Shown: positions 18,644 through 22,572 of the stretch, piece by piece
Numbering within the stretch: the stretch's first letter is position 1
How the letters are laid out: each line of letters begins with the position of its first letter
Assembly: GCA_051748045.1 (NCBI GenBank)
Contig: JBNJGY010000030.1
Span: 1-23,736, forward strand
Source of the DNA: Thermotogota bacterium
GTDB lineage: Bacteria > Thermotogota > Thermotogae > Petrotogales > Petrotogaceae
Direction of reading: 5' to 3'
DNA length: 23,736 nt
Position numbers and translations under genes: made by a program
Notes under the pieces: generated by a model
The model's database searches: none
The model's input: the letters and a program-made list of their open reading frames with translations, nothing else
What the model was told of the DNA's origin: nothing

Positions 18644-18678
18644 TATAATAAAATATCTTAGAATATATGGGGGTTAAT

Positions 18679-20436
18679 ATGCTAAAAAGTCTAAAAAAAT
18701 TAAACAGACTTATTTTTCTCTTTTCACTTGCTATATTACTTATCTCGTTGATAGTTTTTTTTCTAAGCCTATATCGATTCAATGAGAATGAAAAAAATAA
18801 TACTATGATAAATGAAAATATAACAACCATTAATTCAATTATTTCCAATTTATATTTCATTAGAGATAATGAAGTAGATAAAGGTAATCAAAAAATTGAA
18901 GAAATAATTGATTATATAAGGTTATTATCTAATAATAACCAATCATTAAATATTAAATATAAATATGAAGTTACAAAAAAAATGATTCAAAATAATGATT
19001 CAGTACCAATTCAAGAAGTTATTAATGAAATCTCAAAATATGCTAGATATATAAGAGATTATAGAGAAAGAAGAGTATATGAAACAATAACTTTTAACAG
19101 ATTTTCCATTATATTTTTAATGTTTAGTTTATCTCTAATAGTTATCCTATTAACGTATCAAAGATCAAATATAAATAATTATTTTGATAAAATTCAAAAA
19201 GGCATTAAAAGTTTAGAAAACATACTTAGCTATAAAAAAGTTGAAAATAAAATCGATTATGAATGGGTTGAAGAAAAGATATTTTTAAAAGAAATTGAAA
19301 AAATTGATAATGAAATGGATTTAAATAAAAATCTTTTAGAGATTGGTAGATATAATTCAATGTATGACCTTTTAAAAAAAATAATGGACACAGTAGAAAA
19401 GAAATTACCTTTAGATAGATTATCATTTGCGTTTATGGATAATTTTGGGAATGTAATTGCTGAAAATGCTTCAACTAAATTAGATAATATTTATTTGGAG
19501 GCAGGATTTGTAGATGATTTAAAAAACACTTCATTAGAAAATATTATAAAATCAAAAAAATACAGAATTATAAATGATTTAGAAGATCATTATGAAAATA
19601 AACATAAGTCTGAAGCAACTAGACTTCTTTTAAAAGAAGGAATAAAATCAAATATAACAGCTCCTATTCAGTTTAACGATAGAGTAGTAGGTTTCATCTT
19701 TTTTGCTTCTTCGAAAAAAAATGTTTATAATGACTATCATATAAATATAGTAAAAAGAATAATTAATATATTAAAACAAAATATATTTAGTCATTATATA
19801 GTTCAACAAATAATAGCCTCATCATCAAATGGGTTTGTCAGATTAGTTGAAGGTAAAGACAATGAAACTGGAGATCATATTTCAAGAGTTGCAAGTGTAG
19901 CAAGATTAATAGCAAAAAAATTATCTGAAATTAATCCAAATATAACACCAAAATTTATAAGAGAACTATATCTTTTCACACCATTACATGATATAGGAAA
20001 AGTTGGAATTCCAGATGACATTCTTCTTAAACCAGGAAGATTAACAAAGGAAGAATATAATTTAATGAAAACACACGTTACTATCGGAGAAAATATTATT
20101 AAAGATATTAATAAAAGCATTGAAAATCTTAGTGACCTATCTCTTTTAGAAGTAGCGATTGATATAATAAGTGGTCATCACGAAAAATTTGATGGATCAG
20201 GCTATCCAAGAGGCAAAAAAGGTAAAAATATATCTCTTGCAGGTCGTATTGTTGCCGTTGCTGATGTTTTTGATGCGCTTATGAGTAAAAGGCCTTATAA
20301 AGATGCTTTTAGCTTTGAAGAGTCTTATAATTTAATTAAAAAAGGATCTGGAAACCATTTTGATCCTGAAATTGTAGAGATATTTGAATCCTCAATAAAT
20401 GAAATTAAAAAAATATACCAACTTTACAAAAATTAA
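18679..20436 (+). CDS. Membrane-bound GAF + HD-GYP cyclic di-nucleotide phosphodiesterase
   Basis: Two TM helices flanking an extracytoplasmic helical region, a GAF domain (GIKSNITAPI....VVGFI), then ETGDH, HDIGK, HHEKFDGSGYP and ADVFDA. The start is probably ATG 18679 (GGGGG SD) rather than 18667. Confidence 0.9.
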   Translation: MLKSLKKLNRLIFLFSLAILLISLIVFFLSLYRFNENEKNNTMINENITTINSIISNLYFIRDNEVDKGNQKIEEIIDYIRLLSNNNQSLNIKYKYEVTKKMIQNNDSVPIQEVINEISKYARYIRDYRERRVYETITFNRFSIIFLMFSLSLIVILLTYQRSNINNYFDKIQKGIKSLENILSYKKVENKIDYEWVEEKIFLKEIEKIDNEMDLNKNLLEIGRYNSMYDLLKKIMDTVEKKLPLDRLSFAFMDNFGNVIAENASTKLDNIYLEAGFVDDLKNTSLENIIKSKKYRIINDLEDHYENKHKSEATRLLLKEGIKSNITAPIQFNDRVVGFIFFASSKKNVYNDYHINIVKRIINILKQNIFSHYIVQQIIASSSNGFVRLVEGKDNETGDHISRVASVARLIAKKLSEINPNITPKFIRELYLFTPLHDIGKVGIPDDILLKPGRLTKEEYNLMKTHVTIGENIIKDINKSIENLSDLSLLEVAIDIISGHHEKFDGSGYPRGKKGKNISLAGRIVAVADVFDALMSKRPYKDAFSFEESYNLIKKGSGNHFDPEIVEIFESSINEIKKIYQLYKN

Positions 20437-20451
20437 TAAATGTGATACTAT
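20423..20451 (+). promoter_or_regulatory. Promoter of the trp leader-trpB unit
   Basis: TTTACA (20423-20428), 17-nt spacer, TACTAT (20446-20451) with an extended TG at 20443-20444. Confidence 0.7.
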
Positions 20452-20481
20452 TATATAAATACTTTTTAAGGAGTGGTATTT

Positions 20482-20535
20482 ATGTTGAAAAACTCTTTAA
20501 AATTAAATAGAAATTGGTGGTGGCATCTGAAATAG
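20482..20535 (+). CDS. trpL: Trp attenuator leader peptide MLKNSLKLNRNWWWHLK
   Basis: SD AAGGAG at 20468-20473, ATG at 20482, three tandem TGG codons at 20515-20523, TAG at 20533-20535; directly upstream of trpB. Confidence 0.92.
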   Translation: MLKNSLKLNRNWWWHLK

Positions 20536-20601
20536 GATGTCAAGTTTTGTTATGTCAAAAATAATGAAGGCATCCTATGTGATTTTAGGATGCCTCTTTT
20601 T
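20521..20601 (+). promoter_or_regulatory. Ribosome-mediated transcriptional attenuator
   Basis: Pause hairpin 1:2 = 20521-28/20535-42; antiterminator 2:3 = 20532-41/20569-78 (10 bp, one G-U); terminator 3:4 = 20568-77/20586-95 (10 bp perfect) followed by CTTTTT. Confidence 0.9.
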
Positions 20602-20617
20602 ATTGGGTGGAATATAT

Positions 20618-20651
20618 AACCCTTTCTCAAAAAAGAGGAAGGGTTTTTTTT
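20618..20651 (+). terminator. Second leader terminator in front of trpB
   Basis: AACCCTTTCTC (20618-28), A6 loop, GAGGAAGGGTT (20635-45): 11 bp with one G-U, and an 8-T run at 20644-51. Confidence 0.8.
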
Positions 20652-20678
20652 ATATCAAAAATTAAAGGAGTGAATCAA

Positions 20679-21833
20679 ATGTTAAAAACAAGTGGGATTT
20701 ATTATGGAGATTTTGGTGGAAGATTTGTACCTGAAAATTTAGAAAAAAAGTTAGAAATTTTAGAAGATGTTTTCAAAGAAGTAAAAGATGATCCTGTTTT
20801 CAATGCAGAGTTACAATATTACCTGAAAAATTATGTTGGTAGACCATCTTCTCTTTACTATGCAAAAAATTTATCAGACAAAATAGGGGTAAAAACATAT
20901 TTAAAAAGAGAAGACTTAAACCATACAGGTGCACATAAAATAAATAATACAATTGGACAAATATTAGTTGCAAAAAAAATGGGTAAAACTGAAATTATAG
21001 CAGAAACAGGAGCAGGGCAACATGGAGTAGCAACAGCTACAGCTGCAGCTTTATTTAATATGAAATGTAAAGTTTTTATGGGCGAAGAAGATATTAATAG
21101 ACAAAAAATGAATGTAGAAAGAATGAAAATATTAGGAGCTGAAGTTATTCCAGCTACTAATGGAACAAAAACATTAAAAGATGCAGTTGATTTAGCTCTG
21201 GGATATTATATAGAAAATCCTGAAAGTTATTATCTATTGGGATCAGCTGTTGGGCCATCTCCGTATCCAGAAATGGTAAAATATTTTCAATCTGTTATTG
21301 GTAAGGAAGCAAAAGAACAATTTGTTGAAAATGAAGGCGAATTACCAGATGGTATTTTTGCTTGTATTGGTGGAGGTTCAAATGCGATTGGGATTTTTAA
21401 TGAATTTTTAAATGAAAATGTTAAATTATATGCTGCTGAAGGGGGAGGAGAAGGCATTAATTCTGGTAAAACTGCAGCGACATTATCTAGTAATAGTAAA
21501 TCAATAATTTTTCAAGGATCATTTTCATATTGTTTAACTGATAATGAAGATAAACCGATTGAAGCTTATTCAGTTTCTGCTGGGTTAGACTACCCTGGAA
21601 TTGGTCCTGAACATTCATTTTTAAAAGATACAAAAAGAGTTAATTATTATCCTATAAATGATGATGAAGCAATTGAATCATTTAAAATATTGTCTCAAAA
21701 AGAAGGGATAATACCTGCTATAGAATCTGCTCACGCAATAGCTCTTGCAATAAAAATAGCCAAAAAAGAAAACTTAAAAAAAATAATAATCAATCTTTCT
21801 GGCAGAGGAGACAAAGATGTAGGAAGATTTTAA
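20679..21833 (+). CDS. trpB: Tryptophan synthase beta subunit (TrpB1-type), stand-alone
   Basis: FGG.FVPE, KREDLNHTGAHKINN (PLP lysine), ETGAGQHG, GGGSN, SAGLDYPG.GPEH, LSGRGDKD. Start revised from 20607 to ATG 20679 after SD AAGGAG. Confidence 0.96.
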   Translation: MLKTSGIYYGDFGGRFVPENLEKKLEILEDVFKEVKDDPVFNAELQYYLKNYVGRPSSLYYAKNLSDKIGVKTYLKREDLNHTGAHKINNTIGQILVAKKMGKTEIIAETGAGQHGVATATAAALFNMKCKVFMGEEDINRQKMNVERMKILGAEVIPATNGTKTLKDAVDLALGYYIENPESYYLLGSAVGPSPYPEMVKYFQSVIGKEAKEQFVENEGELPDGIFACIGGGSNAIGIFNEFLNENVKLYAAEGGGEGINSGKTAATLSSNSKSIIFQGSFSYCLTDNEDKPIEAYSVSAGLDYPGIGPEHSFLKDTKRVNYYPINDDEAIESFKILSQKEGIIPAIESAHAIALAIKIAKKENLKKIIINLSGRGDKDVGRF

Positions 21834-21864
21834 TTAAAATGGTAAAATAAATTGGTGATTAAAA

Positions 21865-22572
21865 ATGAAAGCAGTTATTAATTTAAATGACTTAAAAATA
21901 AAATTAAGAATAAAAAATATAACAAAAAAATCTATAAAACTTTATTTTTCAGAAAATAAAGAACTTATAATACATAAACCTAAGTATTATTCTTTAGCTA
22001 AAGTGAATCAATTTATTTATAAAAACAAAGAAAAAATATTATCAGAGTATAATAGAGTTTCACGAAATATAGAAGAAAAGAATTTTCACTATTTAGGCAA
22101 AAAAGTAGAGTTTAAAGAGATATATGATGACGAAGTATTAAATTGTGAGATAGAAGAAAATAATCAAGAATTACTTGTGAAAATAAATAAAAAAGTTCCA
22201 CAAAATATTTTAACAGATAAAATATTAAAGACAAAAAATCAATTTTTTTATAGTAAAATAAATAACATAATTTTATTTTATAAAGAAAAGCATAATAAAA
22301 ATCTTGGGTTAAAGATTAATTCTATAAAAATTAAAAATCTTAAATCTAGATGGGGAAGTTGTTCTACAAAGAAAAATTTAAATTTCAATGTAAAATTGAT
22401 ATGTTTTTCTGAAGATGTAATTGAATATGTTGTGGTTCATGAAATGTGTCATTTTATTTATATGAATCATTCAAAAGATTTTTGGAAAGAAGTAGAAAAA
22501 ATATTACCAGATTACAAAGAAAGAAAAAATAAATTAAATAACAAAATAATAATACCAGAGCTTTTGAGATAG
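21865..22572 (+). CDS. YgjP/DUF45 family zinc metallo-hydrolase (M48-like; UTP pyrophosphatase family)
   Basis: SRWGSCS, EYVVVHEMCH (HExxH), NHS.DFW..V. Confidence 0.9.
   Translation: MKAVINLNDLKIKLRIKNITKKSIKLYFSENKELIIHKPKYYSLAKVNQFIYKNKEKILSEYNRVSRNIEEKNFHYLGKKVEFKEIYDDEVLNCEIEENNQELLVKINKKVPQNILTDKILKTKNQFFYSKINNIILFYKEKHNKNLGLKINSIKIKNLKSRWGSCSTKKNLNFNVKLICFSEDVIEYVVVHEMCHFIYMNHSKDFWKEVEKILPDYKERKNKLNNKIIIPELLR

Follow-up and report, generated by a model that had tools for sequence, protein, structure and literature searches.

What can two strong terminators in series be doing immediately ahead of trpB? The question is raised by a 23,736-nucleotide (nt) stretch of DNA from a Thermotogota bacterium of the family Petrotogaceae (GenBank assembly GCA_051748045.1, contig JBNJGY010000030.1, positions 1 to 23,736 of the forward strand; this whole stretch is called the window here), in which a short open reading frame (ORF) with a run of Trp codons is followed by two terminator-like hairpins and then by trpB, the gene for the tryptophan synthase beta subunit. 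An earlier note on this DNA had proposed that the strand freed from the first terminator disables the second. From sequence comparison and folding models, we conclude that the element is probably a ribosome-mediated Trp attenuator with six RNA segments and two intrinsic terminators in series. A little less firmly, we lean towards the fuller reading in which one stalled ribosome gates two working terminators, the 3′ arm and U-tract of terminator 1 (T1) being the antiterminator of terminator 2 (T2), throughout the Trp regulon of one Thermotogota family. The parts of the element are as follows.

20468..20473, + strand: Shine-Dalgarno AAGGAG of the leader ORF, 8 nt ahead of the ATG at 20482
20482..20535, + strand: leader peptide ORF, MLKNSLKLNRNWWWHLK plus stop, 17 codons (sequence read and ORF list)
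20521..20542, + strand: hairpin 1:2 (UGGCAUCU / GGAUGUCA), segment 1 at 20521-28 and segment 2 at 20535-42, -9.6 kcal/mol
20532..20578, + strand: antiterminator 1 (2:3), 20532-41 paired with 20569-78, 10 base pairs (bp), -12.0 kcal/mol
20568..20601, + strand: T1 (3:4), AGGCAUCCUA at 20568-77 and UAGGAUGCCU at 20586-95, 8-nt loop, tail CUUUUU, -17.0 kcal/mol (consensus scan)
20593..20638, + strand: antiterminator 2 (4:5), CCUCUUUUU at 20593-601 with AAAAAGAGG at 20630-38, enclosing GGGU 20605-08 / ACCC 20619-22 (sequence and comparison)
20618..20651, + strand: T2 (5:6), AACCCUUUCUC at 20618-28 and GAGGAAGGGUU at 20635-45, loop AAAAAA, T-run 20644-51, -16.1 kcal/mol (consensus scan)
20665..20671, + strand: Shine-Dalgarno AAAGGAG of trpB, read from the sequence
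20679..21833, + strand: trpB, tryptophan synthase beta subunit, 384 amino acids (TIGR00263, 539.2 bits against a cut-off of 392.45; PF00291)

The leader ORF has its own Shine-Dalgarno, is translatable and carries three successive Trp codons (TGG TGG TGG, 20515-20523) ahead of its stop codon TAG at 20533-35. The third Trp codon and the His codon after it share bases with segment 1, and the stop codon does so with segment 2; the alternative 2:3 helix, which excludes T1, is placed such that a ribosome stalled at the Trp codons would be expected to favour it (an excerpt of PMC4833913 puts the reach of the ribosome at about 12 nt). Both T1, with a stem of 10 bp, and T2, with 11 pairs including one G-U, lie between the leader ORF and trpB, and both were flagged as terminator-like by the consensus scan, which counted 6 sites of this type between 20000 and 22700, compared with 0.6 +/- 0.9 in shuffles. 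Folding of the 221-nt leader as a whole gives z = -5.16, a stability reached by 0 of 200 shuffles. The minimum free energy (MFE) structure in the window contains 1:2, 3:4 and 5:6 together; 2:3 and 4:5 can form instead, but not alongside them. An Rfam search of the leader at E values up to 10 returned 21 matches, none of which reached its gathering score, and neither Trp_leader (RF00513) nor T-box was among them.

The coordinates that the earlier note had assigned to T1, T2, the complementary strands and the GGGU/ACCC helix are all correct on direct reading, and the perfect complement that it had claimed is exact, the DNA CCTCTTTTT at 20593-601 being the reverse complement of 20630-38. Antiterminator 2 has an energy of -7.7 kcal/mol as a helix alone and of -13.6 kcal/mol with the nested hairpin, which by itself contributes -5.0 kcal/mol. 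That nested GGGU/ACCC helix, also part of the original proposal, needs to be qualified: the complementarity is present, and the exact pair is conserved only in a same-genus relative, but an equivalent small hairpin forms in 17 of 17 forced folds.

A relay is proposed in which the position of a single ribosome would set the state of both terminators. When charged tRNA-Trp is plentiful, the ribosome at the stop codon (20533-35) would cover segment 2; with segment 2 covered, T1 would fold and terminate at its own U-tract, and any polymerase leaking past it would meet T2, which should fold unhindered, the 3′ strand of T1 being sequestered within its own hairpin. Under Trp shortage, a ribosome stalled on the Trp codons at 20515-23 would instead cover segment 1, leaving segment 2 to form the 2:3 helix (20532-41 paired to 20569-78). 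The T1 3′ strand, segment 4, would then remain single-stranded together with its U-run (20593-601), and both could bind the A-rich loop and the four leading bases of the T2 3′ arm (20630-38) as these emerge, with the small hairpin 20605-08/20619-22 occupying part of the T2 5′ arm. T2 would fail to nucleate while the polymerase crosses the T2 U-tract, and trpB would be transcribed. The analysis shows the sequence features, how they are conserved and covary in relatives, and the modelled energies; the ribosome positions, termination at T1 and T2, and the kinetic outcome are what we infer here. If the scheme is correct, leak would be the product of two termination failures, and induction would need a single event.

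The relay was examined in relatives by means of a leader pattern consisting of three Trp codons (WWW), CAYC and the 5′ arm of T1. This pattern gave 20 matches in 17 of the 51 genomes of the order and none in a reversed control; one of the matches is a chance occurrence in coding sequence. A stricter pattern was found in 16 of 151 genomes of the phylum, all from one family (the source genome and 15 of the other 25). Together with one leader added by a covariance model (L206) and one added by a metagenome scan (L124), the total is 21 leaders, 20 of which come from 17 of the 26 genomes of the one Thermotogota family. In all 21, three Trp codons and a His codon (WWWH) precede the stop by 1-5 codons; hairpin 1:2, T1 and another hairpin with a U-run behind it complete the layout. 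Eighteen of the 21 have 5-6 U after T1, and the MFE structure contains both T1 and T2 in 20 of 20 leaders folded and likewise in L206. Profile matches of the downstream genes divide the leaders into four classes.

trpB leaders: the window, L049, L046-48 and L034
trpE-operon leaders: L033, L035, L036, L124 and L040-45
trpS leaders: L038 (in the source genome), L037, L039 and L206
TrpX-like binding-protein leader: L051 (220 bits, below the NCBIfam cut-off of 390, with a PF04392 match)

The proximal part of the element is well conserved. Hairpin 1:2 is paired in 94.1% of cells of alignment A2, and the 7 core pairs of T1 are 100% paired in 17 leaders, with 2 pairs changed on both sides. The 6 core pairs of 2:3 are 94.1% paired in 17 leaders and include no two-sided change, so that the support for this helix is conservation, not covariation.

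For the distal pairing, the T1 3′ strand with its U-run perfectly complements 7-12 nt of the T2 loop and 3′ arm in every one of the 17 trpB/trpE/transporter leaders (9 nt in the window and in L049, 10 in g3, 7 in L034, 11 in L051, 10 in L033, 12 in g7 and 10-12 in g6). The letters differ by lineage, with GCCUC-U5 facing A5-GAGG, GCCC-U5/6 facing A5/6-GGG(C), and GCC-U6 facing A6-GG, and the extensions of the helix on the tail side likewise vary, as A:U, AA:UU, AAU:AUU or AU:AU. Since the MAFFT alignment A1 breaks the column register of the 4:5 pairs, we relied on a table anchored at the junction and on a swap test. The junction-anchored register shows two-sided changes of the 4:5 helix at three positions: -2, with U:A in 4 leaders and C:G in 13; -4, with C:G in 4, G:C in 1 and a mismatch in 9; and +2 in the tail, with A:U in 9 and U:A in 3. 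In the swap test with 12 representatives, cognate strands share a mean complement of 9.08 nt compared to 6.77 nt for non-cognate ones, and the cognate sum was attained in 0 of 20,000 permutations; for the U/A-loop class taken alone (9 representatives) the permutation figure is 0.00055. These figures overstate the case because kin are not independent and the lineages amount to about 4-5 types. The earlier note had named loss of this complementarity in orthologues that keep both hairpins as one outcome that would count against it; no such loss occurs in the 17 leaders, in which the complementarity is instead kept with changed letters and is longer in cognate than in swapped pairs.

The trpS leaders are wired differently. 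In 4 of 4, GCCCUU(U) pairs with (A)AAGGGC overlapping the T2 5′ arm, as in a classical antiterminator, and this 4:5 helix is part of the MFE structure, or lies within 1.6 kcal/mol of it, when segment 4 is free. That the trpS leaders apparently use the same relay logic through another partner is, in our view, the most telling argument for selection on the relay. The proposal that segment 4, once freed from T1, serves as antiterminator of T2 is thus supported by conservation with change, by the rewiring in trpS leaders and by the folding models described below. One of the trpS leaders, L038, is the second WWWH leader of the source genome (G000:C5:53960-54110; locus ~1501-1650) and precedes a trpS gene assigned by TIGR00233 (296 bits); the 3′ strand of its middle hairpin, which is followed by UUUAAUUUAU, finds its partner AAGGGC in the last terminator's 5′ arm.

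Energies and folding barriers were modelled at 37 C, with barrier paths restricted to nested structures. With segment 4 free (fold from 20586, 3′ end extended), antiterminator 2 plus the nested hairpin is the MFE structure for last free bases 20636-20642, and T2 takes over only from 20643, when 9 of the 11 nt of its 3′ arm are out; with T1 closed (fold from 20568), the upper stem of T2 is in the MFE structure from 20639. RNA polymerase holds 9-14 nt of nascent RNA, and because of this the resulting 4-nt shift of the take-over point spans the passage of the polymerase over the T2 U-tract. The barrier to T2 is 13.4 kcal/mol from antiterminator 2 with the nested hairpin and 6.5 kcal/mol from the 7-bp partial helix available with T1 closed; over 17 leaders, barriers are 12.0-21.3 kcal/mol with segment 4 free and 0-11.5 kcal/mol with T1 closed. 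The energies shrink with temperature, and at 55 C they are -10.4 kcal/mol for T2 and -8.1 kcal/mol for the anti-T2 fold. Apart from these structures, the full-length MFE pairs 20594-99 with 20664-69, in the region of the trpB Shine-Dalgarno; sequestration of the Shine-Dalgarno by 20594-99 was considered and is treated as a purine/pyrimidine coincidence.

Several results weigh against a coupled double terminator. At equilibrium T2 is favoured over antiterminator 2 in 17 of 17 leaders, by 2.8-9.8 kcal/mol (4.7 in the window), so the switch must be kinetic; the classical trp attenuator is likewise under kinetic control. Because antiterminator 2 draws on the T2 loop and 3′ arm, it cannot be completed until that arm starts to emerge. 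The contrast between the two states in the window, a shift of 4 nt, is modest. With T1 closed, partial helices between the U-run and the A-run are briefly the MFE structure at 20636-38 (barriers 6.8-11.0 kcal/mol), and pseudoknotted intermediates, which lie outside the nested-only paths, could lower the barriers. Covarying positions in the 4:5 helix are few, and the lineages fall into about 4-5 types. Pyrimidine-rich and purine-rich strands raise the chance of complementarity, and shuffles of the T1 strand reach the observed duplex energy in 0-17% of 300 cases, with 0.7% for the window and 17% for L034. Three of the four trpS leaders have UUUAAU-type tails after T1, and the middle hairpin need not terminate for the relay to operate. 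Finally, when two metatranscriptome runs and one DNA run were mapped to 19800-22000, RNA contigs were found to cover parts of trpB and of the upstream gene and to leave 20402-20730 uncovered, so that they carry no information on 3′ ends or read-through.

The trpS tails bear most directly on an alternative that keeps the relay and drops one terminator. In such a his-type arrangement T1 would terminate little in vivo, its U-run would serve for pairing with the A-run of the T2 loop, and T2 would be the sole attenuator. The three trpS leaders in question have UUUAAUUUAU, UUAAAUUUUU or CUUUAAAUUU after the middle hairpin instead of a clean U-tract, and yet they keep the relay pairing; the his leader works with a non-terminating middle hairpin (PMC4046918, in excerpt); and A-runs upstream of T1 can extend its stem into the U-run, for example AAAGGGC...GCCCUUU in g6 leaders. 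However, all 17 trpB/trpE/transporter leaders and the g4 trpS leader have 5-6 U immediately after a T1 stem of -14.7 to -23.8 kcal/mol, which is the standard intrinsic-terminator signature and was flagged as such by the scan. It is hard to see how a hairpin of this kind could fail to terminate once folded, and we therefore consider a single working terminator unlikely, if the best of the alternatives.

Less probable still, and in our view doubtful, is that T2 is independent of T1, either as a constitutive leaky terminator or as an RNA-stabilizing hairpin that sets a ceiling on expression, with the complementarity as a by-product. The equilibrium preference for T2 in all 17 leaders would suit this view, as would the complement of 4-12 nt that non-cognate T1/T2 pairs still show and the 17% of shuffles that equal the best duplex of L034. 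To judge how often such a complement arises by chance, the source genome itself was used as the null: at each of 764 terminator-like sites, the last 6 nt of the stem and 8 nt of tail were compared with the next 45-nt window. A perfect downstream complement of at least 9 nt occurs at just 2 of the 764 sites (0.26%), and one of the two is the trpB leader. Terminator-like hairpins on the same strand 3-35 nt apart occur four times in the 2.41-Mb genome, and two of the four follow a WWWH leader peptide. Independence of T2 is further at odds with the excess of cognate over swapped pairs, the two-sided changes at three positions, the lineage-specific helix extensions and the trpS leaders, which achieve the same logic through another partner strand; a strong constitutive terminator 28 nt before trpB would moreover be costly.

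The other site with a long complement is G000:C2:88670-88740. Its 12-nt complement belongs to a stem (GGGATAGG/CCTATCCC) with a T-run past a gene end, and an AT-rich sequence ending in AAAAAAGGG can form a hairpin of ~21 bp with the 3′ strand and tail of that terminator. The site directly precedes a gene for a protein like ATP-binding cassette (ABC) ATPases, and no leader ORF was seen there.

That T2 is instead under separate control, by an RNA-binding protein acting in trans, by a tRNA or by a further translated ORF, which would make the leader two independent tandem attenuators, is very improbable: two-signal tandem attenuators do exist, as in the mgtCBR leader (PMC3641672, in excerpt), and a PyrR binding site matches 20541-20652 below threshold (27.8 bits against a gathering score of 54), but no Rfam family reaches its gathering score, T-box and Trp_leader are unlisted at E values up to 10, the spacer between T1 and T2 is 6-23 nt in the U/A-loop class and too short for an aptamer or an ORF, no conserved ORF and no Rfam match lie between the two terminators, and all four gene classes under the leader are Trp-related. 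A second leader ORF of 42 codons at 20537-20665 was rejected: it contains no Trp codon, has no visible Shine-Dalgarno and is not kept in the same-genus relative, where, on reading by eye, a stop occurs about seven codons past the ATG that matches it.

The coupled double terminator that we favour resembles the E. coli trpL type in its short ORF with tandem Trp codons, in the placement of segment 1 on these codons and of the stop codon at segment 2, in the mutual exclusion of 1:2, 2:3 and 3:4, and in a GC-rich 3:4 hairpin followed by a U-tract. It differs in having three Trp codons followed by a conserved His codon, in the addition of a second terminator with the further alternative pairing 4:5, and in its occurrence in Thermotogota rather than Proteobacteria, ahead of trpS and a transporter gene as well. 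The absence of a match to RF00513 at E values up to 10 also sets it apart from the Rfam Trp_leader family.

The relay logic is not new, having a precedent in the his leader, where the C:D hairpin is not known to have a U-tract. In Salmonella and E. coli the his leader, with segments A-F, forms A:B, C:D and E:F when terminated and B:C and D:E on read-through (PMC4046918, in excerpt). The Thermotogota leader likewise alternates between three successive hairpins in the terminated state and two shifted hairpins in the read-through state, and as far as the excerpted source goes, both are six-segment relays in which the stalled ribosome controls the distal terminator through the middle hairpin. Unlike a pure relay, the middle hairpin of the Thermotogota leader has its own U-tract in 18 of 21 leaders, and the distal antiterminator of the trpB/trpE/transporter class has as its partner the last hairpin's loop and 3′ arm, not the 5′ arm. 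Two termination points in series within one 5′ leader are also known from the mgtCBR and rimP leaders, the latter having a second terminator in tandem (PMC2965389); according to the excerpts of these sources, each terminator there has its own sensor or antiterminator, whereas the Thermotogota leader has one ORF and terminators coupled by shared sequence. What looks new is a middle hairpin whose own U-tract is shared with the next antiterminator. Our literature search yielded no description of a Thermotogota Trp leader or of two coupled terminators behind a leader peptide; the supplements of PMC2965389 and PMC3766115, outside that search, might list such leaders.

Attenuation by leader peptides, a textbook mechanism, has been described mainly in Proteobacteria and Actinobacteria. 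By their profile matches, the genes regulated by the leader are a Trp regulon, comprising trpB, trpE, trpS and a TrpX-like binding protein, so that Thermotogota would possess a conserved Trp attenuator family with a full regulon that includes a tRNA synthetase and a transporter. Terminators coupled by shared sequence could give one sensor a sharper switch with lower leak; a U-tract may double as termination signal and as a strand of the next antiterminator, and an antiterminator may act on the loop and 3′ arm of a terminator instead of its 5′ arm. Annotators should not take tandem terminators within a 5′ leader for the end of a gene, and Rfam is without a model for this leader family. The layout could also serve synthetic attenuators of high dynamic range.

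In the source genome (99.65% complete), TrpA (PF00290) and TrpE (PF00425) were not found; both were found in 14 of 14 control genomes. The trpB gene in the window thus stands alone and yet appears to be Trp-controlled, and its product probably makes Trp from indole, as a form of indole salvage. Further features flank the leader and trpB.

20423..20451, + strand: promoter-like site, TTTACA, 17-nt spacer, TACTAT, with TG before the -10, a tentative consensus match
18667-20436: gene upstream of the leader, 589 amino acids
21865-22572: gene after trpB, 235 amino acids

Promoter-like sites are fewer in the region than in shuffles (11 against 17.9 in the consensus scan). The C-terminal part of the protein encoded upstream is weakly like response regulators of the cyclic di-GMP (c-di-GMP) phosphodiesterase kind, with 102 bits against a cut-off of 400 for a NosR-family model; its N-terminal part looks membrane-bound. 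The distance from the end of this gene to the leader ATG at 20482 is 46 nt, and the consensus scan listed no terminator-like site in between. The gene after trpB is unrelated to it and encodes a protein with an HEMCH motif and no NCBIfam match; no terminator-like site was listed between the two genes, and the second may therefore be co-transcribed under the Trp leader.

The wider searches returned mostly sequences of other kinds. At least 119 stretches matched in the metagenome scan, nearly all of them GC-rich chance matches; among the AT-rich ones listed, 12 of 13 are leaders, and the sole new leader among the matches listed is L124, which is identical to L151 in its leader. L107 is not a leader, and L111, a metagenome sequence like L124, was excluded from all counts on suspicion of a homopolymer artefact, its G-run, both T-runs and its A-run each being 1-3 letters longer. 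A scan of genome contigs gave 11 stretches, L221, L222, L223, L227 and L230 among them; of the other six, which were inspected, 5 are leaders already found and L226 is GC-rich coding sequence. Covariance model R1, at E values up to 0.1, returned mostly ordinary terminators, among them the gene-end terminators L207, L212 and L218, which are not leaders, and no convincing leader in genus g9 (7 genomes), in g5 or in G002 (68% complete).

The sister family has WWW leaders with a single terminator, ahead of TrpB-like and binding-protein-like genes (L208-L210, L211, L213-L217 and L017). The TrpB-like proteins encoded downstream are ~27-34% identical to TrpB of the window, and the TrpB of L017 is 54-55% identical. 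At L013, the 400 nt upstream of trpB hold at least four tandem copies of a unit of ~68 nt with GGGTCACAGGGCGGAGCCC, and single copies of this core occur upstream of trpB at several other loci of the same genus.

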